Shown: positions 26,086 through 63,360, counted from the stretch's first letter. The stretch: 64,000 nt of DNA from an uncultured bacterium (GCA_964596775.1 CAZQVN010000012.1:19023-83022); one strand, 5' to 3'. Notes: generated from the sequence alone by a model not told the origin. Program-made: numbers and translations.

Positions 26086-26161
26086 TGGTGGGCGAAACAG
26101 GGCTCGAACCTGTGACATCTTGCGTGTAAGGCAAGCGCTCTACCAACTGAGCTATTCGCCC
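26086..26161 (-). tRNA. tRNA-Val (anticodon TAC), CCA encoded
   Basis: Reverse complement GGGCGAATAGCTCAGTTGGTAGAGCGCTTGCCTTACACGCAAGATGTCACAGGTTCGAGCCCTGTTTCGCCCACCA. It folds into a canonical cloverleaf: acceptor GGGCGAA/TTCGCCC, D arm GCTC..GAGC, anticodon stem CTTGC/GCAAG with loop CTTACAC, T arm ACAGG-TTCGAGC-CCTGT. Confidence 0.85.
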
Positions 26162-40453: not shown

Positions 40454-41659
40454 TCAGTCGCCGGTGCGGAACTCGATCCGCCGCGGCAGCGCCGGTCCCG
40501 TGGCATCCCCCGCCGGAACGTCGAACAACCGGTCGATGCGGTTCCCCGAAAGATCCTCGAGTTCCGGCCGGACCGCCACCGCGTACCGTCCGGGCTTCCA
40601 CGGTTCCGCCGGCCTGAAGAGCAGGACGGTGCCCCCGTCCGCCGATTCCACCCAGGCACTGACCAGCGAGCCGTCCTCCCGTTCCACGAGCACGAACCGG
40701 CTCGCCTGGGCAACGTCCACGACCTCGTTCAGCGTGATGCGGAGCGGGTCCGTGCTCCCGGCCGCGGGAGGGTCCAGCGTCCACGCGGCGGGATCCGGCG
40801 ATGTCCGGTCCGCGGCAACGGCACGGAAGACCTTCGTGAACGGCCGCCCGGTCAGGCCGCCGGTGGCGGTTCTCATCCCGGCATCGATCACCAGGCGATA
40901 GGCGCGCCCTTCCACCAGCGGAGCGCCGGCGCGGTCGTGCATCGCGAGCCCCTGCTTGATCCGGCCGGGATGCAGGAGCAGCGTCAGGCGGCGCATGGAG
41001 GGATCCCACAACTCCGGAGTCGTCTCCACGAAGGCCTGCTCGATCCGCGTTCCAGTGTCGTCCTCGAGACGGACATGGGCGGCCGCGTCGCCTCCCTGCA
41101 TCGGTTCGGAAAAGTGGACATAGAACCGGAGCAGGTTTTCCGGCAACCGATCCCCGCCGGGAAGCACCTCGAGCACCGAAGCGGTTTCCAGCGGCCGCAC
41201 CGGTGCGATCCGGAAGCGGGCCTCGATCGCGGTGCCCTCGAACCGGAACGCCACGCGGTAGGGAATGCCGGGCACGAACGGAAGAACCGGGCGGAACTCG
41301 ACGGCTCCGTCCGCCGGCGCGACCCGGCCGAAGACCGGCGGCAGCTCCCGGCCGCGATCCACGGTAACGGTGAGGATGTCCCCGGCGGCGGGGGCGGCCG
41401 CGATCCGCGCCGCGGTCCCGGGGGCGAGACCGGTCACGCGCACCGGATCGGTGGGCACCGCGGGCGTGACGATCCGGGGTGCGGGGGGTGCGGCGCGCGG
41501 GGCAACGGACGAATCCACGACCGTGGATGCGGATGCCGCGACCTGCGCGGACGAGGTCGCCGGAGCGGCCGAAGTCTCCGTGACCTCCGGAACCGTGACC
41601 AGCGCAGTCACGATCAAGGCCGCCGCGGTGCACCGGACCGCGAACACCCCTGTCGCCAC
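40454..41659 (-). CDS. Hypothetical exported protein (Pro/Ala-rich N-terminal linker, beta-rich C-terminal part)
   Basis: Coding-like composition, unlike the overlapping plus-strand 843-aa R/G-rich ORF. Hydrophobic N-terminus MATGVFAVRCTAAALIVTALVTV. The start abuts the upstream gene stop (41660). Confidence 0.5.
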   Translation of the reverse strand: MATGVFAVRCTAAALIVTALVTVPEVTETSAAPATSSAQVAASASTVVDSSVAPRAAPPAPRIVTPAVPTDPVRVTGLAPGTAARIAAAPAAGDILTVTVDRGRELPPVFGRVAPADGAVEFRPVLPFVPGIPYRVAFRFEGTAIEARFRIAPVRPLETASVLEVLPGGDRLPENLLRFYVHFSEPMQGGDAAAHVRLEDDTGTRIEQAFVETTPELWDPSMRRLTLLLHPGRIKQGLAMHDRAGAPLVEGRAYRLVIDAGMRTATGGLTGRPFTKVFRAVAADRTSPDPAAWTLDPPAAGSTDPLRITLNEVVDVAQASRFVLVEREDGSLVSAWVESADGGTVLLFRPAEPWKPGRYAVAVRPELEDLSGNRIDRLFDVPAGDATGPALPRRIEFRTGD

Positions 41660-42826
41660 CTAGAGCGCCATCCGCTCGATCGAGTAGAGAACGAGGTCGA
41701 GCCGGCCCGAGGGCATCCGCTGGAGGCCGGCCACCGCCTTGTCGCTGAAGTTGTCGATGTGCTGGACGCCGGTGCCGGCTCGGGCGGTGTACGGTACGCC
41801 CTCCGTGTACGTCGGCGTCTCGCGGGTGATCCCCGGCTTCTTCAGTTCCTCGCGCACCGCTTCCGGCGTGAACGTCATCAGAGGGAGCTGGCTGTTGGAC
41901 ATCACGAAGATGTCCCGGTCCTTCCAGCGGACCCGCAGCATGTCCATCGGGTAGTTGCCGGAGCCGAACTCGGCGATCGTGTGCCCCTTAACGTGTTCCC
42001 CCTCGCGGAGATCCGCGAGCGGAAACGCCACGAGCGGCGTGCAGAGATACGACGCCAGCATGTAGTCCGTTCCGTCCAGCGTGTACGGCAGGAACGTGCG
42101 GATCGGCGCGGAGGTTTCCCACTCGCCGTGCGCACCGTGATAGATCTCCACGGTGGTCCAGGCCGCGTCGCCGGTGGACGGGTCGATCTTCCAGAGCGCC
42201 GCGGAGAACTCCTCGTTGGACAGCCCCGACACATAGAGCGTTCCGTCGTGAACCGCCATGTCGGTGATGGCCTCGACGCGCATCGGCAGGTCCTTCTTCC
42301 ACGGGTGCTTCGCCTCCGTGCCGACCGGGTTCGGCAGCGTGATCCTCCGGTGGGGCACGTCGTCGAGGCTTACCAGCTCGAACTTTTCCTCGACCGTGAC
42401 CCGGAGCAGCACGTCCGCGTCGGCGAGATCGTTGGGGAGCGACCAGCGGTCGTTCCACTGGCGCCGGGCCCGCGAAACGGAAAAATAGGTGCTCCGGGAC
42501 ACCGGATTCACGGCCATGTCGTGGATCATGACGTCTTCCGCGGTCGTCCCGAGCACCGCGGCGATCTTCGCCTCGAGATCCTTGATGCCGAAGGTGTCGG
42601 GCGCTTCGGCCGGCGTCCGGTCGCCGGTGTCGACGGCGATCACGGCGCCCCCCCTGGAATCCCCGATGAACAGCACGCCGTCGGAACCGAACACGAGCGT
42701 TCCGATGGACCGGATGTCCGGGCGTCCCGGGGTCAGCCCGGGAAACGCGGCGGCGCGGCCGGCGGGCACGGCGGCGAGAAACGCGGCGAGACAGAGATAG
42801 GCGCGGACAGTCCTGCTCATCTTCAA
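41660..42826 (-). CDS. Hypothetical secreted protein
   Basis: Signal peptide MKMSRTVRAYLCLAAFLAAVPAGRAAA. 388 aa. No motif recognised. Same transcriptional direction as, and tightly linked to, its neighbours. Confidence 0.5.
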   Translation of the reverse strand: MKMSRTVRAYLCLAAFLAAVPAGRAAAFPGLTPGRPDIRSIGTLVFGSDGVLFIGDSRGGAVIAVDTGDRTPAEAPDTFGIKDLEAKIAAVLGTTAEDVMIHDMAVNPVSRSTYFSVSRARRQWNDRWSLPNDLADADVLLRVTVEEKFELVSLDDVPHRRITLPNPVGTEAKHPWKKDLPMRVEAITDMAVHDGTLYVSGLSNEEFSAALWKIDPSTGDAAWTTVEIYHGAHGEWETSAPIRTFLPYTLDGTDYMLASYLCTPLVAFPLADLREGEHVKGHTIAEFGSGNYPMDMLRVRWKDRDIFVMSNSQLPLMTFTPEAVREELKKPGITRETPTYTEGVPYTARAGTGVQHIDNFSDKAVAGLQRMPSGRLDLVLYSIERMAL

Positions 42827-42902
42827 TCCTCCTCGGTTTGCGGGGTCGGGTTTCCGATCCGAGTGTAGGACAGGAGCGCGGCGGGGTCCAGAATCGACGG
42901 GA

Positions 42903-45900
42903 TCAGCGACCGGCGGAAGGCAGGAGCGACCCGCGCGGAACCTCCACGTCGATCCGTGTGATGCCGCCGTCGCGACCCAGCAGAGAGGCGCTCTCGACGG
43001 GAGTGAGAGCGTCGCCGGGGCGTTCCGAGACGCCGTTCGTGCCGGTCACGCGGATGGACGGTCCCCTGCCCGTTCGTGTGTAAACGACCGGCACACCGGC
43101 GAACGTGAACGCCAGGGCACCTCCCGGCGGGAGGTCGATCCCCTGCTCCTCCCCCTCCAGGTCGACGTAGTCGAAGCGGTCTCCGCCCGCGGCAAACTCG
43201 CTGTCGCGGAGCAGCACCGGTCGAAAGCGGACGATCCCCCGGCTGACGAAGACGCCGAGTTCGCCGAACCGGGTGAGGATCTCCTCCTTGACCTGGCCGG
43301 TCATTCCCGGCTGCTGGGCCCCGGCGTGACCGGGCGTGTGCGAGTAAGGGTCGGTGGGAAACGCGCCGTACTCCGTCGGCGTCTTTTCGAATCCGAGGCC
43401 GGCGCGGATCCGGTAGTAGTACACGGCCAGCGTGTCGAACGCTTCGCCGGTTGCGCCCGAGTCCGCCGCGCGGAGCAGGATCTCCTGCACGGCGAGAAGC
43501 AGCTTGGCGACCATGTGCCAGTAGATGCAGCCGAGCCCCTCGTATCCGTACATCGTGCCGGAGCGGCCGGTCCACCTGTCGTGCCGGAACACCCGCTCGA
43601 ACAGGTCGAGGACCGGCTGTCGGTCCCTCGCCACGAGCGCCGCCCAGTTCGGCCGCTCGGCAATGCGGTCCAGCGCCAGCCCGACGTCGGCGGCGCGACC
43701 GATGTCCGGGGCGAAACGGACGACGTCCGCGGACTCCCGGACGACCAGCGTTTCGTCGCCCGAGTCGACGAGGCTGCGGAGGAGCGGGCTCGCCAGGACC
43801 GCGTCCGCGGCCATGCGGTTCTTCTCGAGAAAACCGGGGAGGTCGCGAAACGGATAGAGAAGGAAGCTCCCCTGGTCGGCCCGGTACATGCGGCTCGCGA
43901 ACAGCGCGGCGAGGATGTCCGCCGCCTCCTCCGGGGTCATGATTCCCGAACTCAGCACGGCCACCTGCCCCTCGAGCATCTCGTACAGGGGCTCAACGGA
44001 CAGCGACCGGCCGTCCGGCGCGAAGCGCAGCAGGGAGTAGGCCTGATACAGACCGTCGTCGCGCCGGGCGCCCCGGATCGTCGCATCGAGGTGCTCGAGG
44101 ACCCTCCGGCAGAAGGCGACGATCCCGTCGACCGGCACGTCGACGCGCCCGGACATCCCCCCGTCGTACACCCGGGTCCGGTACTCGTGATACACACCGC
44201 CGACCGCGTCGAGGAAACGCCGGCGCTTCGCGTCCGGATCGTCTTCCCCGCCGGGCTCCGCCGGCGCCCCGGGCGGACACGACATGGCGTCCGGGGAGTG
44301 CCCGGCGAATGCCTCCGCGATCCCCCGGTACCAGTCCGCCACCTCCGTACTCAGCGCGACGGAACTCCGCCCGGCCCCTGCGGCCAGGTCGGCCAGGCAT
44401 TCCATGTACCGGCGGAGATGGCAGAGCGTCACCATCGACACGCCGTTCCCCACCAGCGCGTTGTTCGCGTCGTTCCACTCCGGCCGCTGCGTGTTCATCC
44501 AGATGCCGCCGCCCGGAACATGATTGGACAGGCGCGCGAGGGCGGTGACGAGCAGCTTTTCGAACAGGCTGACGTGGTGCACCCGTCCGGCGGCATCGAG
44601 AACGAGCTTGCCGTCGGTGCCGAGTGCCGCGACCCGCTCATCGATCCGGGCGGCCAGCGCCGCGTCGAAATCGATCGTTTCGCGCGGATTCCGCACCATC
44701 TCCGCGTAGGAGCGGAGCCGGTAGGGCACGTTCGTGTAGCTGCAGATCTCGCGGAACAGGCTCGCGCCGAGCCCCTCGGGAGAAACGCGCCGCATCATCT
44801 CGATGAACCGGAGCAGGTACACGACCTGGTGATCCCCCCAGTAGCCGATGTGGCTCCAGGGATCGCGGGAGTCGGGGACCTCCCAGTCCACGCCGTCCCG
44901 GGTGACCCGGTACGGGTTGAAACCGTCCATCGTGGATGCGTTCACGAACCGGGCGATCATCCCCGGGAGAAAACCGGGATAGCCGAGGGCGAGCGCCTCC
45001 CAGTTCTGGAAGATGTCGCGCCAGTTCCCTTCGTAACCGAGGGCCCGCTCCCCCGCCGCGTTCTTCGTGCGGATCGCGAAGCGGTTCCACGGGCGGCTCG
45101 GGTCGCCGTGGCGGCGCCCGAACCAGAGCGGCAGGTACTCCCGGCAGAGGCGTTCGAGATCGGGATCCCCGACGGCCGCGGCGCGCCTCTCGAGGTCCGC
45201 CACCGACAGGAGCGGGGGCAGGGATTTCAGAAAGGACTCGTGGCGCCGGGCCGTGTCCCGGTTGCGCTCCCGGATCACGTCGCGGAGATCCGAGGCGGGA
45301 ATGTCATGGTTCCGCACGAAGGCACCGCCACGCATCGTGTTGAACAGCACGTTGGCACAGTGATGCGCGGACTCCTCGGCTCGGGCGGTGCACTGCAGGG
45401 CGTCGGCGGCGGCGATGATCTTCCGGAGCGATGCCCCGGCCGCGCGGATCCGGCCTTCCGTATCCCCGGCCGCATCGTCGCCGTCGAGAAGGCGGCGGGA
45501 CAGCTCCCCGATCTGCCGGGCATCCCGGCCGGTGTCCGCGACGATATGCCAGGTGGCGGACGCGCCCGGCGCGAGGCGCAGCGACGCGGCGGCAAGGTAG
45601 TGACCGCGGCGTCCGGTCACCAGCGTTTCCGGGGCCACGCTCCCTCCGGCCAGGAACGCGTCGATGGCCCCGGTCGACAGGGCCACCGTGGCCCCGGGCA
45701 ATCCGCGGACGTGCACCGTGGCGGCGCGCAGGACCTCGGCCGCCTCCACCCGGTCGGTGATCCGCGACGTCAGGGAGTAGATCGCGAGTCCCGTGCGGGG
45801 ATCGCACTCGGTGCGCTTGTACGCATCGACGAGGCAGCTGGACTGCTGGTACAGGGCGAGCGGCGCCCCGAACGGCAGTATGTTCCGGAGCCCGTCGAGC

Positions 45901-46424
45901 AGTTCGACACGCAGCGGGGTTTCCCCGGTGTTCTCGAGGACGGCGGTCCGAACGATGCCGAGGGCGTCACAGAGGGCCCAGCGGTAACGGAAGGACAGCC
46001 CGAGGCCGGGATGGATCGCCTCGAAGATCAGCTGCGTTCCGAAGATGTTCTTGTAGAGATTGCGCTTCACGGACTCGTCGCCCCACGCGCGTTCGGGAAA
46101 CGGCTGCCAGAGCGTCTCGCCGCCGGTCCCGCGTTTCACCCGGAGCAGCGTGATCGGCCCGGTATGGTGATGGCCGTCCATGAGGCGGTCCGCGGTTTCA
46201 TAGGGGAACAGGGCGCCGTCGGGTCCGACGCGACCGGCGGTGAGGCCGCCGCTCGACGCGACGAACATCCAGAGGTCGCTGTCCCCGGCCAGGGTCATCA
46301 GGAACGGCGGCATCCGGTCGTGACGGGAGATCCGGTAGAACAGCTCCCCGTCGATCTCCGTGAAGGCCCCGCGCGGGGCGTCGGCGGCGGCGCCCCGGTT
46401 CGCTTCGTGCGGAGAGCGGATCAC
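42903..46424 (-). CDS. Large cytoplasmic protein, candidate GH94/GH149/GH161-like (clan GH-Q) beta-glucan phosphorylase
   Basis: GTG 46424 overlaps the upstream stop as GTGA. About 1170 aa with no signal peptide. QRPEWNDANNALVGNG resembles the catalytic (G)DWND motif of GH94 phosphorylases. The size matches beta-1,3-glucan phosphorylases. The context is GH16, GH1 and an oligosaccharide importer. The 130-codon track extension was discarded. The family call is tentative. Confidence 0.5.
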   Translation of the reverse strand: MIRSPHEANRGAAADAPRGAFTEIDGELFYRISRHDRMPPFLMTLAGDSDLWMFVASSGGLTAGRVGPDGALFPYETADRLMDGHHHTGPITLLRVKRGTGGETLWQPFPERAWGDESVKRNLYKNIFGTQLIFEAIHPGLGLSFRYRWALCDALGIVRTAVLENTGETPLRVELLDGLRNILPFGAPLALYQQSSCLVDAYKRTECDPRTGLAIYSLTSRITDRVEAAEVLRAATVHVRGLPGATVALSTGAIDAFLAGGSVAPETLVTGRRGHYLAAASLRLAPGASATWHIVADTGRDARQIGELSRRLLDGDDAAGDTEGRIRAAGASLRKIIAAADALQCTARAEESAHHCANVLFNTMRGGAFVRNHDIPASDLRDVIRERNRDTARRHESFLKSLPPLLSVADLERRAAAVGDPDLERLCREYLPLWFGRRHGDPSRPWNRFAIRTKNAAGERALGYEGNWRDIFQNWEALALGYPGFLPGMIARFVNASTMDGFNPYRVTRDGVDWEVPDSRDPWSHIGYWGDHQVVYLLRFIEMMRRVSPEGLGASLFREICSYTNVPYRLRSYAEMVRNPRETIDFDAALAARIDERVAALGTDGKLVLDAAGRVHHVSLFEKLLVTALARLSNHVPGGGIWMNTQRPEWNDANNALVGNGVSMVTLCHLRRYMECLADLAAGAGRSSVALSTEVADWYRGIAEAFAGHSPDAMSCPPGAPAEPGGEDDPDAKRRRFLDAVGGVYHEYRTRVYDGGMSGRVDVPVDGIVAFCRRVLEHLDATIRGARRDDGLYQAYSLLRFAPDGRSLSVEPLYEMLEGQVAVLSSGIMTPEEAADILAALFASRMYRADQGSFLLYPFRDLPGFLEKNRMAADAVLASPLLRSLVDSGDETLVVRESADVVRFAPDIGRAADVGLALDRIAERPNWAALVARDRQPVLDLFERVFRHDRWTGRSGTMYGYEGLGCIYWHMVAKLLLAVQEILLRAADSGATGEAFDTLAVYYYRIRAGLGFEKTPTEYGAFPTDPYSHTPGHAGAQQPGMTGQVKEEILTRFGELGVFVSRGIVRFRPVLLRDSEFAAGGDRFDYVDLEGEEQGIDLPPGGALAFTFAGVPVVYTRTGRGPSIRVTGTNGVSERPGDALTPVESASLLGRDGGITRIDVEVPRGSLLPSAGR

Positions 46425-48037
46425 TTGAGAAGGACGATGCGCCGGGTTTCCACGGCCGGTCCCGACCGGAAGCGCAGCATGTAGATGCCGGAAGCGAGAC
46501 GGCGACCGGCATCGTCCCTGCCGTTCCAGACGGCTTCGTGCTCGCCGCGGTCGTACGGGCCGTCCGCGAGAACGCGAATCCGGCGCCCGGCGAGATCGTG
46601 GACGGTCACCTCGGCGTGCCCCGCCTCGCGCATCCGCCAGCGCAGCGTCGTGCCCGCGCTGAACGGGTTGGGACTGGGCGGGAGGAGCGCCGGGATGCGG
46701 CCGGCGGCCGGGGGTTCCTCGGGAACCGCCACGACGGAACCGTGCGGAATGAAGTTGAACCCGGAGAGGATCACTTCCTGGTTGGATGCCGGAGCCCCGG
46801 TGATGCGCCACAAGTTGATATGCACCCGCGGCTGTTCAGGGCGCGGGATGTGGGCTCCGGCATAAGTCCAGGAATGTATGAGCGAGCCCGGAGATTCGTC
46901 CCCGGGACCGCCGCGCCAGCTCCGGTACTCCACCTTGTCGGGGAGCCAGCGGAACGCGTGACTCGTGATCTCGCCGTTGCCGAACGTGGCGGCGAAGCGG
47001 CTGATGTTGGCCGGGCCGTCGAAAGGCTGGGCCACGAACTGGCCGATGCTGTTGGCCGGATTGCCCCAGCGGCTGAACTCCACGTCGATTTCGTTGAACG
47101 GGTTCCACCAGAGCCAGGCGGGATCCCAGCAGTGGCCGTACTGCCAGAGAAACAGGCCGAGAACGACCTGCGGGTCGATCAGGTCGAGGCGCCCTTCGGT
47201 CGTGAAGATGTAATCGCCGTAGCCGAGGGCGTCCACGAGCGCCACCTCGGTGCTGTACCAGGATCCGCCGATGTTCTTCACGGTGACGTGCAGGCGCCCC
47301 TGGGGGTCGACCCAGACGGAACCGGAGCCGTCGCTGAACAGGTTCGGGCCGGGACCGTAGTAGCCGGGACCCTTGACCCGCCACGTCCGGCCGCCGAACG
47401 ACAGCGTCCTGCCGCCCGGAAAATCGTTCCACTGGATGGCGGCCAGGGAGGGCGACGTCTTGTGAAATTCCGCGGTGTCGAAGTAGACGTCGGGCACGGA
47501 GGTCCCGGGAGCCTGCAGCACGCCGAGCATCAGGCGGACGGCCACCGTCCCCGACGGAGCCGGACCGCTGGTGACCGTGAATTCCTGGACCTGGCCGGTC
47601 GGCGTGGCCGCGCCTGCCACCGTGTGGGATTCGTAGCTGATGAGCACGCCGCTGGAATTCCGCCACTCGATGTTGAGGATGGCCGCCGACTGGCCGGTCA
47701 GCGGCCTGACGGCGGTATGCCAGCCGTCGACGGACGCGATCCAGCGGTCGCCGGGCACGGAGGCCAGCTGCTGCCAGTAACCGGACACATCCCATCCCCC
47801 GGCGTTCGGGCCGGTGAGGCGGGCGGCTTTCGACCCGTGAACGGCGTTCGGGGAGGACCCGACGCTGCCGAACTGGTTCCATCCGCCGAACACCGTGCCG
47901 GACCCGACGACTTCAAAGCTGGGATTGGCCAGCAGGCACTGCGCTGCGGCCCGCGGGGCGCCGGCCGCAGCAGACAGAACAAGGATCGCACTCAGCGCCG
48001 CGGCGAGGCGGACGATGCCCGGGTTCCCCCTCTTCAA
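46421..48037 (-). CDS. Secreted CBM4_9-like + GH16-like (ExDxE) module protein with T9SS-type C-terminal domain
   Basis: Signal peptide. N-terminal CLLANPSFEVVGSG...GGWN CBM4_9-like module. Central FNEIDVEFSRWG resembles the GH16/XET DEIDFEF active site. The C-terminal ~75 aa (HAEVTVHDLAGRRIRVLADG...GIYMLRF...RIVLLK) matches the tail of the C25 peptidases. Confidence 0.65.
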   Translation of the reverse strand: MKRGNPGIVRLAAALSAILVLSAAAGAPRAAAQCLLANPSFEVVGSGTVFGGWNQFGSVGSSPNAVHGSKAARLTGPNAGGWDVSGYWQQLASVPGDRWIASVDGWHTAVRPLTGQSAAILNIEWRNSSGVLISYESHTVAGAATPTGQVQEFTVTSGPAPSGTVAVRLMLGVLQAPGTSVPDVYFDTAEFHKTSPSLAAIQWNDFPGGRTLSFGGRTWRVKGPGYYGPGPNLFSDGSGSVWVDPQGRLHVTVKNIGGSWYSTEVALVDALGYGDYIFTTEGRLDLIDPQVVLGLFLWQYGHCWDPAWLWWNPFNEIDVEFSRWGNPANSIGQFVAQPFDGPANISRFAATFGNGEITSHAFRWLPDKVEYRSWRGGPGDESPGSLIHSWTYAGAHIPRPEQPRVHINLWRITGAPASNQEVILSGFNFIPHGSVVAVPEEPPAAGRIPALLPPSPNPFSAGTTLRWRMREAGHAEVTVHDLAGRRIRVLADGPYDRGEHEAVWNGRDDAGRRLASGIYMLRFRSGPAVETRRIVLLK

Positions 48038-49446: not shown

Positions 49447-49522
49447 GATGGGTCCTCCCGGAGTGTGAACCGGGGGCGGTACTCGGGGCCTCTTCGACTC
49501 CTGCCCCGCCCCCCGGCAGAGC

Positions 49523-49540
49523 CTCGAATATCTCGAATAT
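49523..49540. repeat. Tandem direct repeat CTCGAATAT x2 in divergent promoter region
   Basis: ctcgaatatctcgaatat at 49523..49540. On the minus strand it gives TATATTCGAGATATTCGAG, with a TATATT -10-like hexamer for the minus-strand CBM operon. Confidence 0.4.
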
Positions 49541-49552
49541 AGTGTGGTCGCC

Positions 49553-49582
49553 TTGACTTCTCCCATCATGATACACTATGTT
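49553..49582 (+). promoter_or_regulatory. Candidate sigma70 promoter (TTGACT-18-TATGTT) for the plus-strand ABC-ATPase/GH1/GH-fusion operon
   Basis: -35 TTGACT at 49553..49558 and -10 TATGTT at 49577..49582. This is about 45 nt upstream of the GTG at 49629. The -10 overlaps the palindromic operator. Confidence 0.45.
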
Positions 49583-49597
49583 CGGCAATCGAACAAA
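49577..49597. promoter_or_regulatory. Palindromic operator TGTTCG-gcaat-CGAACA (copy 1 of 2)
   Basis: tATGTTCGgcaatCGAACAAAg has 6-bp perfect arms (8 bp with one mismatch) and a 5-nt spacer. It overlaps the -10/TSS. The same half-sites recur at 63286..63308. Confidence 0.55.
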
Positions 49598-49628
49598 GTC
49601 GAAAATGGACCTGTCCGGGAGATGATCC

Positions 49629-55053: not shown

Positions 55054-55057
55054 GCGG

Positions 55058-55076
55058 TCCCGGGGCGCTTCCGGGA
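55058..55076. terminator. Hairpin TCCCGG-ggcgctt-CCGGGA between convergent genes (possible bidirectional terminator, no U-tract)
   Basis: 6-bp stem with 7-nt loop, centred in the 38-nt gap between the + gene ending at 55053 and the - gene ending at 55092. Confidence 0.3.
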
Positions 55077-55091
55077 GATTCCGCCCGCGGC

Positions 55092-56060
55092 TCAGCGCTC
55101 CGGCGCCTCCGCCACATGGCACGCCGCGGCGTGACCGGTACCGAACGTGCGCAGCTCCGGCCGCGACTCGCGGCAGCGCTCCTCGACCAGCGGGCAGCGC
55201 GGGTGAAAACGGCAGCCGGCCGGCGGGTTCACGAGCGACGGGGGTGAGCCGGGAATGCTCACCGGCACCACGTCTCCCTTGACCGAAGGAAACGCCTGGA
55301 GCAGTCCCTTCGTGTACGGGTGGTGCGGCTCCTTCCGGAGCGCCGCCACCGGCCCGACCTCCACGAGGCGGGCGGCGTAGAACACGGCCACCCGGTCCGA
55401 CACCGACAGCATCCGGGCCAGGTCGTGGGTGATGAACATCACCGCGAAGCCGACCTCCTTCTGCAGGGCGCGGATCCGGTTGAGGATGTCCCGCTCGACG
55501 ACGACGTCGAGCGCGGTGGTCGGCTCGTCGAGGATCACCAGCGACGGCCTGAGCGCCAGCGCCAGCGCGATCCCCACCCGCTGCCGCATCCCCCCCGACA
55601 GCTGGTGGGCGTACGCGTCCAGCCGGTCCACGGGGATGTCGACCATGTCCAGCAGTTCGCGGGCCCGGGCGCGGGCGGCGCCGCCGGACGACACTCCGTG
55701 CGCCTCCAGCGTGTCCACGATCTGTTCGCCGACGGTGATGACCGGGTTCAGCGCATCCATGGCGCTCTGGAAGACCATCGAGATCCGGTTCCAGCGGATG
55801 GCCCGGAGTCCCGCTTCATCGAGGTCGAGAATGTTCTTCCCCTCGAACCGCACCGTGCCGCCGGAGATCACCGCGGGCGGCGGAAGGATGCGCATCACCG
55901 CCTGGGCCAGCGTGGACTTTCCGCTCCCCGACTCCCCGGCCACGCCGAGGATCTCGCCGGGCAGGAGATCCAGCGACAGGTCGTCGATGGCGCGCACCGG
56001 CCCCCGGTCGGTGATGTAGTCCACGTTCAGCCCGCGGATCGACAGGAGCGGCTCAGCCAC
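55092..56060 (-). CDS. ABC transporter ATP-binding protein (OppD/DppD-like, with C-terminal oligopeptide-ABC extension)
   Basis: Walker A GESGSGKST, signature LSGGMRQR, Walker B LVILDEPTTALD, ITHDL. C-terminal CxxHPRC Cys motif typical of the OppD family. Confidence 0.85.
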   Translation of the reverse strand: MAEPLLSIRGLNVDYITDRGPVRAIDDLSLDLLPGEILGVAGESGSGKSTLAQAVMRILPPPAVISGGTVRFEGKNILDLDEAGLRAIRWNRISMVFQSAMDALNPVITVGEQIVDTLEAHGVSSGGAARARARELLDMVDIPVDRLDAYAHQLSGGMRQRVGIALALALRPSLVILDEPTTALDVVVERDILNRIRALQKEVGFAVMFITHDLARMLSVSDRVAVFYAARLVEVGPVAALRKEPHHPYTKGLLQAFPSVKGDVVPVSIPGSPPSLVNPPAGCRFHPRCPLVEERCRESRPELRTFGTGHAAACHVAEAPER

Positions 56061-56988
56061 GATCCACCACCACCGGCGTCGAGCGCGACGGCTCCTGCCC
56101 GCGCTTCCTGAGCCACGCTCCCCACGCCCGCTCCAGCTGCAGGCGCGGGTTCGTGATCTCGTCGAAACCCGAGTTCAGCATCGTCAGCGCGAACCCGACG
56201 AGCGCCACGCAGAACCCGGTCGGCGCGAACGTCCACCACGCGCCGGTCAGCAGCGCGGAATCGTTCTGCGCCCAGTAGAGATTCGTGCCCCAGGTCACCG
56301 AGGACACGTCGCCGAGGCCGAGATACTCGAGGCCGACCTGGGCGCCGATGGCGTACACGGTGCTGCCGATCACCTGGGCGACGATGAGGCTCGTCATCGT
56401 GGGGAGGATCTCGCGGGTGATGATGCGGAAGTTCGACTCCCCGGTGACGATCGCCGCGGCGACGAAATCGCGGCGCCGCTGGGCCAGCGTCTGGGCCCGC
56501 ATCACGCGGGCGTTCCAGGCCCAGCCGGTGACCACGAGAACGAGGCCGAGCGTCAGCGGCCCGGACGGCAGGTAGGCCGCGATCACGATGGCCAGGGGAA
56601 GGCCGGGAATGACCAGGAACACGTTGAACAGCAGCGACAGGAGCCCGTCGACCCGCCCGCCGAAGTATCCGGCGGCGACGCCGATGAGCGCCCCGATCAG
56701 GACCACGATCAGGCCGACGCTGAAGCCGAGCAGGAGCGACGTCCGGGTGCCGGCCACGAGCTGGGCCAGCACGTCCTGCCCCTGCCCGGTCGTGCCGAGC
56801 CAGTGCTCCGCGGACGGGGGCGACAGCGGAATGCCGACCAGCGCGCCGGGGTCGCCGACGAACAGCGGGCCGAACGCGGCGATCAGGACGAACACGAGGA
56901 GGATCGCGGCGCCGATCGACGCCTTCCGGTCGCGGCGGATCGCCTGCAGCCACGACCCGATGCCGGTGGCCTTCGCGGAGCCGGTCAT
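56053..56988 (-). CDS. ABC transporter permease (OppC/DppC-like)
   Basis: ATG 56988 overlaps the upstream stop as ATGA. About 6 TM segments. The ABC permease EAA-like region ...AAIVTGESNFRIITREILP... is present. The upstream part of the track ORF is R/G-rich and was trimmed. Confidence 0.8.
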   Translation of the reverse strand: MTGSAKATGIGSWLQAIRRDRKASIGAAILLVFVLIAAFGPLFVGDPGALVGIPLSPPSAEHWLGTTGQGQDVLAQLVAGTRTSLLLGFSVGLIVVLIGALIGVAAGYFGGRVDGLLSLLFNVFLVIPGLPLAIVIAAYLPSGPLTLGLVLVVTGWAWNARVMRAQTLAQRRRDFVAAAIVTGESNFRIITREILPTMTSLIVAQVIGSTVYAIGAQVGLEYLGLGDVSSVTWGTNLYWAQNDSALLTGAWWTFAPTGFCVALVGFALTMLNSGFDEITNPRLQLERAWGAWLRKRGQEPSRSTPVVVDRG

Positions 56989-57968
56989 TCGCCGGAATCC
57001 CGGGTGCGGGGATCGAGCCAGATGTAGACCATGTCGACGAGCCAGTTCGCGCCGAGCACCGCGAGCGTGATCACGAGGAAGATCCCCTGCATCAGCGGAT
57101 AGTCCTGGTTCCGCACCGCCTGGACCAGCAGGTAGCCCTGGCCGGGATAGGAAAAGACGATCTCGGTGAGCAGCGACCCGCCGAGCACGTAGCCGAGCGC
57201 CATGCCGAAGCCGGTGACGGAGGGAAGCAGCGCGTTCCGGGCCGCGTAGCGCAGGACGACCCGCGACGGGGACAGCCCCTTGGCCCGGGCCAGGTTCACG
57301 TAGTCGGCGGAGAGAACGGTGATCATCGTGTTGCGCATCGACAGGAGCCAGCCGCCCAGGGTGACGAGGACGACGGTGCCCACCGGGAGCGCGGCGTGGC
57401 GGACCACGTCGGCGAGGAACACCGCCGAGAACCCGGGCGTCAGGTCGTCGCCGTAGGCGTGGCCGAGCGGAAACCACCCGAGCGTGAAACCGAACACGTA
57501 GAGCGCCACCATCGCCAGCCAGAAGTAGGGAAACGCGCCGACGAACACGAGGACCGGGGGCAGCACCGTGTCCAGCCAGCCGCGCCGCCACCAGGCGGCG
57601 GCCACGCCGAGCAGCGTGCCGATCACGAAACTCAGCACGACCGCGGTGCCGGCCAGGAAGATCGTCCAGACGAGGCCCGACCCGATCACGTCGACCACCG
57701 GCGTCGGAAAGTAGGCCACCGAGATGCCGAGATCCCCCCTCAGCACATGGGCGAGATACTGGAAGTACTGTTTCCAGAGCGGAGCCTCGGTCAGGCCGAA
57801 TGTCTGCCGGAGGGCGTCCAGCGCCTCGGGCCCGAGGCGCCCCTTGAACCGCGCGAACAGCGCCGTGGCGGGGTCACCGGGCATGAGCCGCGGCAGGAAG
57901 AAGTTCAGGGTCAGCGCCGCCCAGGCGGCCACCAGGTAGAACCCGAGACGGCGGAGCAGAAACCTCAC
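56985..57968 (-). CDS. ABC transporter permease (OppB/DppB-like)
   Basis: GTG 57968 overlaps the SBP gene stop (GTGA). MRFLLRRLGFYLVAAWAALTLNFFLPRLMPGDP is the typical OppB N-terminus. Six TM segments. Confidence 0.8.
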   Translation of the reverse strand: MRFLLRRLGFYLVAAWAALTLNFFLPRLMPGDPATALFARFKGRLGPEALDALRQTFGLTEAPLWKQYFQYLAHVLRGDLGISVAYFPTPVVDVIGSGLVWTIFLAGTAVVLSFVIGTLLGVAAAWWRRGWLDTVLPPVLVFVGAFPYFWLAMVALYVFGFTLGWFPLGHAYGDDLTPGFSAVFLADVVRHAALPVGTVVLVTLGGWLLSMRNTMITVLSADYVNLARAKGLSPSRVVLRYAARNALLPSVTGFGMALGYVLGGSLLTEIVFSYPGQGYLLVQAVRNQDYPLMQGIFLVITLAVLGANWLVDMVYIWLDPRTRDSGE

Positions 57969-59646
57969 GGCGCCTCCGTCTTCGGCACGAGCGACGTGAG
58001 CACGAGCAGGCATTCCCCGCGGTCGAACTTGTTCGGGGACGGATCGGCGTACGGATTGTCGCGCGAGGGAAAGCCGTCGAACCGGCGCGTGTTGTACTCG
58101 GCCCACGACGGGTTCGGGTACAGCGGAATGGCCGGCACTTCGGCGGCGAAGACCGCCTGCAGGTTGTCGACGAGACGCCGCTGCTCCGCGGGGTCCGGCT
58201 CGCGCTCGAACGCCAGCAGCGCGGCATCCGCGGTCGGACTGCCGTAGCGGTGCCAGTTCGCGCCGGACACCTCGCCCGGCGGCTTGACCGTGGCGGTGGA
58301 CATCAGCGTGCGGTAGAAGATGTACGGCGTGGGGCCCTCGAAGGACCAGCCGAGCGTCAGGTCGAAGTTCCCCTCCTGGACGCGCTGGAACCAGGCGCCG
58401 AAGTCGTAGGTGCGGACGGTCGCGTCCACGCCCGCCTCCGCGAGGCCGCGGGCGATCACCTGCGCCGCGCGGACCCAGTCGGACCAGCCGGAGACGGTGA
58501 GGATTTCATACCGCCACGGCGTTCCGTCGGGCAGCGTGCGGAAACCGTCCGCCCCCCTCCGGTATCCCGCCGCGTCGAGGATCGCGTTGGCGCGCTCCAG
58601 ATCGTGACGCACCCAGTCCGCCGTATCCGCCACCGTCTCGTTCCGCCACGCGGAGTACGCGTCGGAGAGGGCCGTGGCATCGGCCGGCCGCGAGTAGCGG
58701 TAGCAGGCCACGTCGACGAGAAGGTCGCGGTCGATGGCCATGCTGAGCGCCTTGCGCACCTGGATGTCGTCGAACGGCGCCCGCGTCGTGTTCGCGTACA
58801 GGAAGACGGTGCTCCCGGTCAGCGGGAACCAGTAGTGGTGATCCTCGGGGTTGCGGTCGCGGTACACGCGCTCCACCGCGGGAATGAAGTTCCCGGCCCA
58901 GTCCACCTCGTCGAAGACGAGGGCGAGATTCGCCCGGTCGTTCGACGGGTAGGCCGGAAAGCGCAGCGCGTCGAAGCGCGGCACCCCGGGCTGCCAGTAG
59001 TGCGGATTGCGACCGAGCTCGAAGAACTGGTTCTTGAACACCCGGACTTCCGTGAACGGCCCGGTGGCCACCGGATTCTCGTTGGGGAAGGCCACCGGGT
59101 CCTCGATGAGGCTCCAGACGTGCTCCGGCACGATCTGCGAAGCAGCGACCTCGTCGAACCCGGGGATGTAGACCCGCTGGAACCGGAACTCCACGGTCGT
59201 GTCGTCGGGCGCCGAGACGCTCTCGAGAAAGCTCCACACGGCGCGGCGGTCCAGCGCCGGGTGCCGGCGCATCAGGTCGAACGTGAACGCCACGTCGGCG
59301 GCGCCGAACGCCTCCCCGTCCGACCAGCGAACGCCGCGGCGCGTCGTCAGGCGGAGCACCCGGTTGTCCTCCCGCCAGAGGTGCCCGGTGGCCAGCCAGG
59401 GCACCTGTTCCGAGGTGACGCTGTTGAAGACGAACAGCGGCTCGTACACGCCGGCCATGGTCGGCCAGCGCGCCGCCGAAGCGGTGGACAGCGGATTGAA
59501 GTTGCGGACCCAGGAGGCGTGCTGTTCCTGCGAGACGACCAGGACGCCCAGCGGAGGTTCCGGGGGCTTGCGCACGCAGGCCGGCCCGGCGAAGCCGAGC
59601 GCGATAAGGACGGCGAGAATCCGGCTCATTCCGCGGGCGGCCCGGT

Positions 59647-59650
<4 letters not shown>
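57965..59650 (-). CDS. ABC transporter substrate-binding lipoprotein, family 5 (Opp/Dpp-like; probable oligosaccharide binder by context)
   Basis: ATG 59650 overlaps the GH16 stop (ATGA). Lipobox LIALGFAGPAC. Family-5 SBP length (561 aa) and conserved ...YEPLF..., ...GTPWRYEIL... blocks. Confidence 0.8.
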
Positions 59651-60491
<841 letters not shown>

Positions 60492-60495
<4 letters not shown>

Positions 60496-61742
60496 CGAGC
60501 TCTCGCGCCCGCCGCGGCCGGAAACAGCGACGGGTCCGACAGCGCCGCCTCGAGCACGAGTGTGGCCGCGCCCACCGCGGAAGCCTGCGGGCCGAGCCGG
60601 CTGATGAGTATTTCCGCGGCGGCCACGGAACTGACCAGGGAGCGATGCTTCACGGTTTCCCGCAGGGGATCGAGCAGCGTATCGCCGAGTCGGGCCAGGC
60701 CGCCTCCGAGAATGACCCGGGCCGGATTCATGAGATTCAGGAGGCCGGCCACGGCGATACCGAGATGCTCCGCGGCCTCGCCGGTGAGCTTGAGGGCGAG
60801 CGGGTCGCCGGCCAGGGCGGCATCCTCGATCCCCGAGATCGTGACGGGTCGTCCGGCGAGGCGGCTTTCCGGAAACTCCGCCAGGAGCCGGCGGGCCCGC
60901 TCCTCCAGCGCCGGTGCGCCGACGAACGTGGCCAGGCATCCGCGGAGCCCGCAGAGACAGGGCCGCCCGCCCGGATCGATGGCCATGTGACCGATCTCGC
61001 CGGCCACTCCCGCGGAACCGCGGTAGACGTCGCCGCGGATGACGTGACCCGACCCGATTCCGGTGGCCAGCTTGATGTAGGCGAAGTCCTCGACGCCCTG
61101 CCCCGCGCCCCACCAGCGCTCGGCGAGGGCGCCGAGATTGGCGTCGTTGTCCACGAAGTGCGGAACGCCGTACCTTTGCGACAGGAGGCCGAGCCCGCTC
61201 TTCCCCTTCCACTCCGGCATCACGATTTCCGAAAGGTCGTCGGGGTGCAGCGGATCCACCGGGCTCGGCACCGCGACTCCGATTCCCACGAGGTTCTTCC
61301 GGGCCACCCGCGCCGAAGCAAGGACCGCGTCGCAGAGGTCGACGATCAGCCTGCGGGTTCCGTCCGGGTCGGAGCGGACGGGATGAGCGCGGAGTTCCCA
61401 GGCCACGACCTTGCCGCGAAGATTCGTGAGGGCCACGCCGACATGGGCCGCCCCCATCTCCACGCCGACGAGGAAACAGGCATCGTCCTGGAATTCGAGA
61501 ACGATCGGCCGCCGCCCCCCGCGCGACTCCCCCGCCCCGACTTCCGCCACGAGCCCGGTGGGAAGGAGGGCATCGATCACTCCGGAAACCGTGGAGCGGG
61601 ACAGGCCGGCGGCGCGGGCGATGTCGGCCCGGGAAATCCGCTGTTCCCCCCATATGAGCCGAAGGACCGGATGGATGAGCGGCGCCGGCCGGGAAAAGTC
61701 CTCGTGCCGGTCGTTGCCCCGGATGACCGAGGCCCCCTTCAT
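60492..61742 (-). CDS. ROK family transcriptional regulator (NagC/XylR-type: N-terminal HTH + sugar-kinase-like domain)
   Basis: HTH ISRADIARAAGLSRSTVSGVIDALLPTGLV. ROK glycine-rich region VGVEMGAAHVGVAL. Zn-binding motif HMAIDPGGRPCLCGLRGCLATF. The start is set at the internal ATG (MKGASVIRGND), about 61742 in the track frame. My manual count placed this ATG 1 nt higher (61743), so the start coordinate is +/-1. The 106-codon R-rich upstream extension was discarded. Confidence 0.75.
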
Positions 61743-61798
61743 GAGAGCGGTTCCCCGCGGTGATTCTTCCGGTTCATGCCGCGGACATCCTTTCGTCG

Positions 61799-63160
61799 TT
61801 ACCGGTGGAAGTAGATGTTGTCGACGAAGATCGTCTTTCCGTCGCCGGCGATGATAATCTGCGCCATGTGCCCCCGTGAAATCAGCCCGGTGAACGCCGT
61901 CAGCGGGATGTCCAGGGAAGCCCAGCGGCCCGAAGCATACGGCGGCGTGGACGCGGCATCCAGCGTCAGCTCGTGCTCGTGGTCGGGAGCCCCTCCGAAC
62001 GTGCCGTCCTCGCCGAAGTCGACGAGCTTGACCTTGAACACCGAACCCTCGGTGCCCCACACGTCGATGTGGAAATGGGTCATGGCCGACGCGTCGATCG
62101 TCGCGTTCCCGAACTCGATCCCGGCAAAGACGAGGTTCGTGTAGGCCTTCGTGTCGTTGCCGGCGATCTTCAGGTCGGCCACGTCGGCCTGGTCCCAGGT
62201 GGCCGACCAGGTGTCCACGGGCACGGCGGCATAGCTGTTGCTGTACAAGGCAATGACGTTACCCGCGGGGAGCGTGGGCGCCGGCGCCGCCGTCGGGGGC
62301 ACGGCGCTCGTGTTGAGCGTGACCGTGCCCGACACCGGCACGGCGCCGAGCAGCGCGGTGATCATGGCCGTTCCTCCGCCGACGACCTGGATCGACCCGT
62401 TCCGGACGACGGCCACGTCCTCGTTCGACGACAGGAACGTGAAGTATCCCGGCTGGTGCCCGATCGTCCGGTCGGTTCCGGCAACGCTGAACACCGTGCG
62501 CGTCCCCTCCACGGTTACGGTGGCCCCGACGAACCCTCCGGCCGTGCGGGTGGTCATGGACGGCCGCGGGTTGGAAATTATGGTTACGGTTTCGAACTGG
62601 ATCTCGTCGAACCAGATGTCGTACGACGCGGCGCCCTCCGGACCCTCGGCAAAGAAGAACAGGCCGCGCTCCGCGGACAGCCTCTCCGGCAGCGGGATGG
62701 GGATCACGTACTTTCGCCAGGTCGTGGTGAGCGCGATCGCGCTCTGGCTGGCCTCGTACTTCGATGTTCCGGTGTTGTCGTTTCCGAGCCCCGCGACATC
62801 GAGGACGGCCGCCTTGCCGGCCTTGGCCCAGAAGGTGAGCGCGTTGTAGGAGGACAGGTCGCGCGCCGGCCGGGTCGTGAACGCCCCCCCGGCATAGCCG
62901 CCGGTGGTGCTCCCCGGGGCGGGAACCGTCACCTTGAGCGATGCGGATCCCTGGTAGCGCTCGTTCGTGTCGATGGACACGGCATCCAGCCGTGACCCCT
63001 GGAACGCCTGGAAATCGAGCCCCCCTTCGAACGCGTCGAGAAAGACGACGGGATTCGAGTCGAGCGGCACGGGCTGGAGGCCGGAAATGTCCCGTTCGCA
63101 GCCGGCGACGCAGAGAATCGCCGCAACGGCGGCCGTTCCTGTCATGTGTCTACGATTCAT
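61799..63160 (-). CDS. Surface lipoprotein with two CBM-like beta-sandwich modules (candidate glycan-binding protein)
   Basis: ATG 63160 (GGAGG 4 nt upstream). MNRRHMTGTAAVAAILCVAGC lipobox. Two modules: ...ALTFWAKAGKAAVLDV...YDIWFDEIQFE and ...THFHIDVWGTEGSVFKVKLVDFG...IFVDNIYFH. The track's upstream 155 codons were discarded. Confidence 0.55.
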   Translation of the reverse strand: MNRRHMTGTAAVAAILCVAGCERDISGLQPVPLDSNPVVFLDAFEGGLDFQAFQGSRLDAVSIDTNERYQGSASLKVTVPAPGSTTGGYAGGAFTTRPARDLSSYNALTFWAKAGKAAVLDVAGLGNDNTGTSKYEASQSAIALTTTWRKYVIPIPLPERLSAERGLFFFAEGPEGAASYDIWFDEIQFETVTIISNPRPSMTTRTAGGFVGATVTVEGTRTVFSVAGTDRTIGHQPGYFTFLSSNEDVAVVRNGSIQVVGGGTAMITALLGAVPVSGTVTLNTSAVPPTAAPAPTLPAGNVIALYSNSYAAVPVDTWSATWDQADVADLKIAGNDTKAYTNLVFAGIEFGNATIDASAMTHFHIDVWGTEGSVFKVKLVDFGEDGTFGGAPDHEHELTLDAASTPPYASGRWASLDIPLTAFTGLISRGHMAQIIIAGDGKTIFVDNIYFHR

Positions 63161-63285
63161 CCCGCCTCCGGTGTTGAAGCGACGGCCCCCCGAAGGAGCC
63201 GGGCCTTTCGAAACCGCCCGTGCCCCCCTCGTCGCATCACCCATTCGCGACCCTTTGGCCGGGCACGCCGGACGGCTCCCGCCAT

Positions 63286-63308
63286 CTTTGTTCGATACAC
63301 GAACAAAG
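63286..63308. promoter_or_regulatory. Palindromic operator CTTTGTTCG-ataca-CGAACAAAG (copy 2 of 2)
   Basis: Perfect 9-bp inverted repeat with a 5-nt spacer, about 126 nt upstream of the 63160 start. It shares the TTGTTCG-N5-CGAACAA core with the site at 49577..49597. Confidence 0.55.
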
Positions 63309-63360
63309 TTAGGGGAACCGGGGAGATCTGTCAAGCGGACAGGATTGCGCCGATCGCGGG

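Follow-up and report, generated by a model that had tools for sequence, protein, structure and literature searches.

Gene content of the locus

A stretch of 64,000 nucleotides from an uncultured bacterium (GCA_964596775.1 CAZQVN010000012.1:19023-83022), here called the window, carries a conserved gene cluster at 42903-63310 that we propose to serve the catabolism of beta-1,3-glucans. Genes in this window of ~68% G+C were chosen by third-position GC content and then by family searches. The cluster consists of three operon-like arrays (minus, plus, minus; Table 1), which encode putative glucan-binding and glucan-cutting proteins, an Opp-family ATP-binding cassette (ABC) importer, a phosphorylase of glycoside hydrolase family 149 (GH149), a GH1 beta-glucosidase and a ROK-family regulator. 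They also encode a 1045-aa protein in which a glucanase-like domain is followed by a predicted beta-barrel, and it is this fusion protein that occupies most of what follows. Judged from the close homologues of its genes, the host appears to be an uncultured high-GC relative of the Eisenbacteria or Krumholzibacteria.

An earlier, first-pass annotation of this DNA had described a beta-glucan utilization locus at 40454-63310. Our gene calls agree with the gene positions given there and add the 1045-aa gene, which had been left out. The right part of the span was also recovered, while the left border was not, the conserved locus beginning at 42903. The 38-nt gap that had been reported between two convergent arrays is real; the hairpin within it was not significantly more stable than shuffled sequence (z = -1.3), and a scan of 49300-49700 for a terminator consensus found none. 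No TonB_dep_Rec, Plug or SusD family was detected in the locus genes or in the other large open reading frames (ORFs) of the window, so the reported lack of a TonB-dependent transporter holds for these ORFs.

A glucanase-like domain joined to a predicted outer-membrane barrel

GH158 and GH157 were the top fold matches of the enzyme domain of the fusion protein, and the catalytic glutamates are conserved, at ~20% identity to these families and with sequence E-values of just 1e-3 to 1e-4. The GH158/GH157 endo-beta-1,3-glucanases compared were BuGH158 (6pal), GH158(Pro) (9oro, PMC13195107) and LaGH157 (9fz9). Where GH158 has an Ig-like C-terminal domain, the fusion protein instead has a helical linker and a beta-barrel of ~600 residues. 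In the structure model (predicted local distance difference test score, pLDDT, 77.6; predicted template modeling score, pTM, 0.54), ~26 long beta-strands extend from residue 454 to the C-terminus, as counted from the secondary-structure string and not from coordinates. These strands alternate in hydrophobicity (2.29, against 1.54 ± 0.22 in shuffled sequences), to a degree that 0 of 1000 shuffles reached. The fold matches of this domain were outer-membrane barrels, namely MOMP, FepA, AlgE, BtuB, OccAB3, chitoporin and PfeA. Taken together, the model and the strand pattern make it very likely that the C-terminal domain is an outer-membrane beta-barrel of some kind.

Several more specific assignments were considered and rejected. 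No Pfam family matched the C-terminal domain even at E ≤ 5, DUF5916 and other Pfam outer-membrane families included. A TonB-dependent transporter was discarded as there was no Plug or TonB_dep_Rec match, FepA, BtuB and PfeA being matches of fold only. A stretch first taken for a TonB box (AKVAVVTDG) aligns to the first beta-hairpin of GH158. Lastly, the linker helix is reminiscent of a type Va autotransporter, but the model has ~26 strands, not 12, and the protein has no match to the Autotransporter Pfam family.

The fusion protein has more than 4500 close homologues, which are annotated at most as "glycosidase". A full HMMER scan with the barrel returned 475 cluster representatives, with the same fusion architecture in most of the full-length ones listed. 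Other relatives are stand-alone barrels of ~570-600 aa without a glycosidase domain (P0462, P0394, P0446 and P0426), one of them with a clear signal peptide and several with an aromatic C-terminus (...YSF or ...ISY), both traits in keeping with an outer-membrane barrel. Still others are longer, at 1218 aa (P0496) and 1351 aa (P0365), and carry a CBM4_9 domain or additional sequence at the N-terminus. Because both stand-alone and longer relatives exist, we read the barrel as a module with variable passengers. Outer-membrane barrels usually have both termini in the periplasm, and for this reason the enzyme domain is expected to be periplasmic, where it would act as a sink against back-diffusion of the sugar. 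In the open-access literature we found no description of a glycoside hydrolase-barrel fusion, nor of this type of locus in Eisenbacteria, Krumholzibacteria or Gemmatimonadota.

We also noted that, among 50 large ORFs that flank the fusion gene in related loci, 5 combine CBM9_1 with DUF5916. We suspect DUF5916 to be another uncharacterized outer-membrane barrel joined to a carbohydrate-binding domain, which may parallel the fusion.

The fusion gene is conserved with two lipoprotein genes across phyla

At least 592 species-representative genomes carry the fusion gene, with 51-66% identity over about 1000 residues. Its carriers include Krumholzibacteria, Eisenbacteria, Gemmatimonadota (Longimicrobiales, Palauibacter and Gemmatimonadaceae), Fibrobacteraceae, Ignavibacteriales, Rhodothermales, Calditrichota and genomes labeled Myxococcales. 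Among Bacteroidota it occurs in Saprospiraceae, Chitinophagales, Lentimicrobium, Mariniphaga, Flammeovirgaceae and the cultured Chryseobacterium aquaticum C-174.

Co-occurrence was counted in the 62 fusion loci that had enough flanking sequence. Homologues of the GH16 lipoprotein were present in 57 of them and homologues of the 453-aa lipoprotein in 54, with both in 53. The remaining genes were found less often: the ROK regulator in 33 loci, GH149 in 25, GH1 in 18 and the Opp binding protein in 10. The fusion protein and the two lipoproteins, GH16 and 453-aa, make up the evolutionary core of the locus; the inner-membrane transporter is interchangeable, and the Opp importer of the window is one such accessory.

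The arrangement in the window is reproduced gene for gene in L001 (Eisenbacteria) and in L004, a complete genome that carries the NCBI label Latescibacterota. L002 (Krumholzibacteria) has the same core with a major facilitator superfamily (MFS) transporter in place of the ABC cassette. In loci of Gemmatimonadota and Ignavibacteria a GH3 gene follows the fusion gene, and the Gemmatimonadota loci checked have MFS_2 as well. The Chryseobacterium locus (L085) reads in one direction through the fusion gene, a CBM11/Big_2 protein, GH16, GH149, GH17 and GH30, and no SusC/D was found among the ORFs of at least 150 aa scanned within 10 kb of its fusion gene. Across the related loci, a TonB-receptor barrel was present in just 2 of 50 large ORFs flanking fusion genes.

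The same locus also lies on a 3.2-Mb contig, L005 (ERZ25039492 contig_2005), where calls are fused or split: one permease is called at 636 aa, and the fusion protein in pieces of 301, 60, 323 and 106 aa. These broken calls probably reflect long-read frameshift errors rather than real pseudogenes.

Table 1. Genes and other features of the beta-1,3-glucan locus, in window coordinates.
Feature	Position	Strand	Array	Assignment and supporting matches
GH149 beta-1,3-glucan phosphorylase	42903-46424	-	minus 1	1173 aa
538-aa secreted protein	46421-48037	-	minus 1	CBM-like beta-sandwich, divergent GH16-fold domain (both modeled), T9SS type A/FlgD_ig tail
470-aa secreted protein	48034-49446	-	minus 1	two CBM-like repeats, T9SS-type C-terminal domain
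Operator copy 1, TGTTCGGCAATCGAACAAAGT	49579-49599			divergent promoter region; overlaps second hexamer of sigma-70-like site
ABC ATPase, OppF-like	49629-50516	+	plus	ABC_tran 112.7 bits; oligo_HPY weak, partial
GH1 beta-glucosidase	50513-51919	+	plus	Pfam Glyco_hydro_1 530.7 bits
1045-aa fusion protein	51916-55053	+	plus	signal peptide; GH158/GH157-like clan GH-A TIM barrel ~43-410; helical linker 420-451; predicted beta-barrel 454-1044
Gap between convergent operons	55054-55091			38 nt; GC-rich hairpin, -24.5 kcal/mol
ABC ATPase, OppD-like	55092-56060	-	minus 2 (importer genes 55092-59650)	ABC_tran 100 bits; oligo_HPY 64.7 bits
ABC permease, OppC-like	56053-56988	-	minus 2	BPD_transp_1 73 bits; OppC_N match
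ABC permease, OppB-like	56985-57968	-	minus 2	BPD_transp_1 135.7 bits; BPD_transp_1_N match
Family-5 substrate-binding protein	57965-59650	-	minus 2	SBP_bac_5 231.6 bits; lipoprotein-like N-terminus
GH16 laminarinase-type lipoprotein	59647-60495	-	minus 2	Glyco_hydro_16 84.7 bits; motif GEIDIME
ROK-family regulator	60492-61742	-	minus 2	ROK 182 bits; N-terminal winged helix-turn-helix
453-aa lipoprotein	61799-63160	-	minus 2	lipobox VAGC; weakly CBM11-like N-terminal domain, Big_2, C-terminal domain without family
Operator copy 2, TGTTCGATACACGAACAAAGT	63289-63309			perfect 9+5+9 palindrome upstream of minus-strand operon

A ROK regulator and its candidate operators

In the ROK regulator, MarR and HTH_24 matches cover residues 26-65, and the protein scored 205.8 bits against the NagC model, which is below the equivalog cutoff. 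The first-pass annotation had paired this regulator with two copies of one operator. Indeed, the sequence TGTTCG-N5-CGAACAAAGT occurs in exactly two copies in the window, where 0 would be expected by chance. Related loci conserve copy 1 at the corresponding position, and copy 2 is conserved upstream of the lipoprotein gene in L001, L002, L004, L023, L030, L055 and others. With up to two mismatches allowed, TTGTTCG-N5-CGAACAA was present in 34 of 34 loci that contain the ROK gene, usually 100-250 nt upstream of the fusion gene or of the GH1-fusion operon, with a further copy before the lipoprotein gene. Loci from Bacteroidota have a Y_Y_Y-type regulator instead of ROK, and the operator motif is mostly missing from them. 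Because motif and ROK gene are inherited together, the operator is tied to ROK and the fusion gene is central to the regulon.

In six loci from Saprospiraceae and Flammeovirgaceae (L062, L065, L067, L069, L071 and L080), a protein of ~950-970 aa is encoded divergently and directly upstream of the fusion gene (~6700-9700, minus strand), where it takes the place of ROK. A Y_Y_Y domain was found in the one checked, to which the others show ~60% identity. This protein may be the counterpart of a membrane-spanning type of beta-glucan regulator reported from marine Bacteroidota (bioRxiv 10.64898/2026.01.10.698779).

Predicted secreted and surface proteins

Besides the fusion protein, the locus encodes four proteins that are predicted to act on or bind the polymer outside the cell. 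The GH16 lipoprotein, which had been called a laminarinase, combines a match to the family hidden Markov model with an ExDx(x)E catalytic motif, and the GH16 call is upheld. The 538-aa protein is more divergent: no Pfam or NCBIfam model for GH16 matched it even at E ≤ 5, and it had no sequence match in the PDB. An AlphaFold (AF2) model built on 43 homologues (pLDDT 84) was compared with known structures by Foldseek. Its N-terminal beta-sandwich matched the carbohydrate-binding modules (CBMs) CBM22, CBM4 and CBM16, its central jelly-roll matched GH16 lichenases and laminarinases (TM score 0.66-0.69), and its tail matched the C-terminal domains of PorU and PorZ. In the motif EIDVE, the residues E316, D318 and E320 are invariant in the family. 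Because of the fold matches and the invariant motif, the 538-aa protein is probably a divergent but active GH16-like glucanase.

In BLASTP comparisons of the 470-aa with the 538-aa protein, both repeats of the former aligned to the CBM-like domain of the latter (E = 7e-10 and 6e-6), and the two tails aligned at E = 3e-17. The reading of the 470-aa protein as a tandem CBM rests on homology to a modeled domain. The only part of either protein that sequence profiles recognize is the FlgD_ig/type IX secretion system (T9SS) type A tail. FlgD_ig scored 33 bits in the 538-aa protein and 38.6 bits in the 470-aa protein; TIGR04183 (cutoff 23) was slightly exceeded by the former (24.3) and not reached by the latter (17.2).

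The 453-aa lipoprotein has a canonical lipobox, and Big_2 is its sole domain recognized by PDB and Pfam profiles, the CBM_11 match being weak and below cutoff (E = 2.8e-4). The Chryseobacterium homologue scored 31 bits against CBM_11, above the cutoff of 27. We regard the 453-aa lipoprotein as a candidate surface glycan-binding protein.

For these proteins the first-pass annotation proved partly right. Its CBM plus GH16-like secreted protein is supported by the structure model and the EIDVE motif and not by sequence profiles. The tandem architecture of its CBM4_9 protein stands, although Pfam gave no match that would confirm the CBM4_9 label. The description of both proteins as T9SS cargo agrees with FlgD_ig in each case and with TIGR04183 for the 538-aa protein only. 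Its CBM-like surface lipoprotein is a lipoprotein by its lipobox, with the CBM assignment left at a sub-cutoff match.

Two PorU-like C25 proteins are encoded at 490-8890 of the window. They scored 230 and 213 bits, under the equivalog cutoff of 420, and fit T9SS-type secretion, short of proof. Their ORFs, at 490-4818 and 4637-8890 on the minus strand, are adjacent and span ~1420-1440 aa (stop-to-stop upper bounds). Both carry Peptidase_C25 and C25-propeptide domains, and one has a FlgD_ig tail itself. Such a tandem pair is unusual, and may relate to the processing of FlgD_ig-tailed cargo in this lineage.

The importer and the cytoplasmic enzymes

The Opp-family importer has a complete set of parts, as had been claimed: an SBP_bac_5 protein with a lipoprotein-like N-terminus, two permeases and two ATPases. 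Its OppF-like ATPase gene is syntenic in L001, L004, L007, L010, L014, L042 and L054. Among solved structures, the binding protein scored best against the Vibrio chitooligosaccharide binder (1zty and 6lzq; 288-290 bits, E ~ 1e-85), then against the Thermotoga cellobiose, laminarin and mannoside binders (2o7i, 4jsd and 4pfu; 159-179 bits, 1e-51 to 1e-45), and far less well against NikA and DppA (≤83 bits, 1e-22 to 1e-21). By these scores it is a member of an oligosaccharide-binding clade, nearer to sugar binders than to peptide or metal binders; the clustering with peptide-type OppA/DppA that would have refuted the first-pass annotation did not appear. The ~2000 close homologues of the binding protein, 72-79% identical, come from Eisenbacteria, Krumholzibacteria and related metagenome-assembled genomes (MAGs).

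The GH149 protein, formerly a ~1170-aa candidate for a GH94/149/161-like phosphorylase, scored 1389.8 bits against the NCBIfam equivalog NF058639.1 (cutoff 1150) over residues 18-1162 of 1173. A bacterial beta-1,3-oligosaccharide phosphorylase (PDB 6hq6) matched residues 23-1164 at E = 1.1e-289. The assignment to GH149 is firm, and phosphorolysis of laminari-oligosaccharides is predicted from the family. On reading its sequence we saw no N-terminal signal peptide, and the protein is for this reason probably cytoplasmic. The sequence of the GH1 protein likewise showed no N-terminal signal peptide on reading, and its family match bears out the earlier proposal of a GH1 beta-glucosidase as cytoplasmic finisher.

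The earlier emphasis on the importer was not sustained. It had been described as standing in place of SusC/D, a comparison that mixes compartments: the ABC importer belongs to the inner membrane, SusC/D to the outer. SusC/D pairs are known as a trait of the Bacteroidota and are their textbook uptake route. Their absence had been thought surprising for an FCB-type (Fibrobacteres-Chlorobi-Bacteroidetes) organism; it is not, because the nearest relatives of the genes are found in Eisenbacteria and Krumholzibacteria MAGs. Nor is an Opp-type sugar importer with a phosphorylase unusual, as Type I GH149 clusters already have both (PMC5827456), and a ROK regulator (BglR) whose regulon includes an Opp-type ABC importer and GH16 is known from Thermotoga maritima (PMC3553997). 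The Opp importer is ordinary in itself, and what deserves notice in the locus is that three proteins are conserved together, the enzyme-barrel fusion, the GH16 lipoprotein and the candidate glycan-binding lipoprotein.

A proposed route for beta-1,3-glucan and its alternatives

Collectively, we think it likely that the locus is a ROK-repressed regulon for the catabolism of beta-1,3-glucan (laminarin, or fungal or bacterial glucans), which would include surface cutting, passage through the barrel, ABC import and phosphorolysis. The GH149, GH1 and GH16 enzymes, the Opp importer, the ROK regulator and the operators all support the original description of a beta-1,3-glucan utilization locus. Outside the cell, the 470-aa binder, the 538-aa glucanase, the GH16 lipoprotein and the CBM/Big_2 lipoprotein would bind and cut the polymer. 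The resulting oligosaccharides would cross the outer membrane through the fusion barrel and be shortened by the attached GH158/157-like glucanase, after which the family-5 binding protein would pass them to the Opp-type importer. In the cytoplasm, GH149 would yield glucose-1-phosphate, and GH1 would hydrolyze the rest to glucose. ROK would hold the two TTGTTCG-N5-CGAACAA operators until a sugar effector appears, a repression that we propose on the model of BglR of T. maritima, a regulator responsive to glucose and cellobiose (PMC3553997).

That the barrel is the uptake route across the outer membrane we put at slightly under an even chance. We suggest, more tentatively still, that the fusion founds an undescribed class of outer-membrane glycan-uptake device. 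In such a device, a beta-1,3-glucanase joined to a very large TonB-independent barrel would form, with the GH16 and glycan-binding lipoproteins, a capture and import module independent of SusC/D that feeds interchangeable inner-membrane transporters (Opp-ABC here, MFS elsewhere). Such a module would be conserved at 50-68% identity in at least 592 species of Eisenbacteria, Krumholzibacteria, Gemmatimonadota, Ignavibacteria, Fibrobacteria, Calditrichota, Myxococcota and Bacteroidota. Some points weigh against the proposed route. The fusion barrel model is only moderately confident by the scores given above, and the enzyme domain could face the periplasm or the surface. A TonB-dependent transporter or a porin encoded elsewhere in the genome could do the uptake. 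Furthermore, the solved protein nearest to the binding protein binds chitooligosaccharides, not glucans.

The strongest alternative, though an unlikely one, is that the barrel is a mere anchor or translocator that displays the glucanase in the manner of an autotransporter, with uptake left to porins or TonB-dependent transporters encoded elsewhere. The order of N-terminal enzyme, helical linker and C-terminal barrel is that of type Va autotransporters, BuGH158 is reportedly a surface enzyme, and only 64 kb of the genome are visible. On the other hand, the number of strands and the missing Autotransporter match do not fit a display device, and barrels of the same family exist without a passenger. 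TonB-dependent receptors are moreover rare near the fusion gene across phyla, and in Bacteroidota the fusion gene heads its operon, where SusC would be expected.

A different beta-glycan as the main substrate (mixed-linkage glucan, cello-oligosaccharides or chitin oligosaccharides, for example) is improbable. GH1 enzymes accept a broad range of substrates, the EIDVE motif of the 538-aa protein is of the lichenase type and its best fold matches are lichenases, and the binding protein is nearest to a chitooligosaccharide binder. These hints are set against a GH149 protein that scores above the 1,3-beta-glucan phosphorylase equivalog cutoff, a lipoprotein GH16 with a laminarinase-type ExDxxE motif, and GH158/GH157 as the top fold matches of the fusion enzyme. 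Related loci also have the usual companions in laminarin use, GH17, GH30 and GH3, and neither GH18 nor GH20 was found among the genes scanned.

A cluster for the synthesis, export or remodeling of the cell's own beta-glucan, in which the barrel would be an exporter like AlgE, BcsC or PgaA and GH149 would work in the synthetic direction, seems very improbable. Exopolysaccharide systems do pair barrels with periplasmic glycoside hydrolases, and AlgE is among the fold matches of the barrel. Phosphorylases are, in addition, reversible in vitro (PMC5827456). However, the locus has no glycosyltransferase or synthase, and the high-affinity importer or MFS transporter, the GH1/GH3 beta-glucosidases, the surface endo-glucanases and the sugar-responsive ROK-type repressor all speak for catabolism of an external glucan.

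Finally, import of peptides or nickel by an Opp-type transporter that lies beside glycan genes by chance is hardly credible: close homologues are annotated "peptide/nickel transport system substrate-binding protein" and NikA is the best-scoring NCBIfam model for the binding protein, yet far below cutoff, whereas sugar binders match it ~60 orders of magnitude better than NikA/DppA, the cassette stays in place in at least 10 species of several lineages, with the fusion gene on one side and GH16 on the other, one ATPase gene is co-oriented directly upstream of GH1 in an apparently shared operon, and the operators flank both operons.

The locus illustrates the equipment for beta-glucan of uncultured phyla about which little is known, and it points to a conserved outer-membrane module without SusC/D. 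Should the fusion protein be the entry route, it would represent a new mechanism of glycan uptake that couples cutting with passage, and it would account for laminarin-type loci without a TonB-dependent transporter, some in Bacteroidota among them.

Comparison with known systems

The T. maritima locus TM0024-TM0032, which we take to comprise the GH16 enzyme Lam16A, the GH3 enzyme BglB, the binding protein TM0031/BglE and the regulator BglR/TM0032, shares with the locus in the window a ROK repressor, a ~23-bp palindromic operator, an Opp-family importer, an extracellular GH16 and an intracellular beta-glucosidase. Thermotoga binders are also the second-best group of solved relatives of the binding protein (E ~ 1e-51). 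Unlike the locus in the window, the Thermotoga locus lacks GH149, T9SS-type cargo, a fusion of enzyme and barrel, and the conserved pair of lipoproteins. The two operators are unrelated in sequence, and phyla and envelopes differ.

The chitin cascade of Vibrio consists of the chitoporin ChiP, a periplasmic chitodextrinase, a family-5 binder with an Opp-family ABC importer and a cytoplasmic GH94 chitobiose phosphorylase; GH94 and GH149 are related families. The compartment logic is the same, from secreted endo-enzymes through a TonB-independent channel to periplasmic trimming, ABC import and a phosphorylase. The Vibrio binding protein is the closest solved relative of ours (E ~ 1e-85) and a chitoporin is among the barrel fold matches. 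The substrate of the Vibrio cascade is chitin, however, and channel and trimming are the work of two proteins there, but would be that of a single polypeptide here. With 18 strands, chitoporin is also a much smaller barrel.

For the "Type I" GH149 clusters of Proteobacteria, for example Vibrio, a role in scavenging beta-1,3-gluco-oligosaccharides has been proposed (Kuhaudomlarp et al., 2018, PMC5827456). They too place GH149 beside an ABC cassette (COG0747 binding protein, two permeases and two ATPases) and a regulator, which is LacI or AraC and not ROK. These clusters lack an extracellular laminarinase and an outer-membrane component; the locus in the window has a laminarinase, a candidate outer-membrane component and CBM proteins.

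In laminarin polysaccharide utilization loci (PULs) of Bacteroidota, SusC/D is found with GH16, GH17, GH30, GH3, GH149 or GH158, as in Bacteroides uniformis (PMC7157763) and Formosa (PMC6246565). Surface GH16 or GH158 endo-glucanases and glycan-binding lipoproteins are common to both kinds of locus, and GH149 to some PULs. In Bacteroidota carriers, the order of fusion gene, lipoprotein gene and GH16 gene mirrors that of SusC, SusD or surface glycan-binding protein, and glycoside hydrolase. The locus in the window is nevertheless not a canonical PUL because SusC/D is absent: there is no SusC-like transporter and no SusD, and the fusion protein showed neither a plug nor a TonB-receptor domain. 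Regulation differs as well, with ROK here and hybrid two-component or one-component systems in the PULs. Transport and cleavage have a precedent for being joined in the MFS-GH17 protein of Formosa, a fusion of a transporter with a carbohydrate-active enzyme for laminarin, which resides in the inner membrane (PMC6246565).

Other features of the window

The genes at 40454-42826 were rejected as members of the locus, as they had no homologue in 84 related loci. This pair, on the minus strand directly downstream of GH149 (40454-41659 and 41660-42826), encodes one protein of 401 aa with a Big_5 domain only and another of 388 aa with a signal peptide and without a family match. A tRNA-Val gene (anticodon TAC; 26086-26161, minus strand) was the sole RNA gene detected; no other Rfam family reached its gathering score in the window, and hence none inside the locus. 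The 1102-aa protein encoded at 12636-15944 (plus strand) has an MFS-like membrane region, a domain resembling spermidine synthase and TPR repeats at its C-terminus, and two more large TPR proteins are encoded after it (15945-20161); they are unrelated to the glucan locus.

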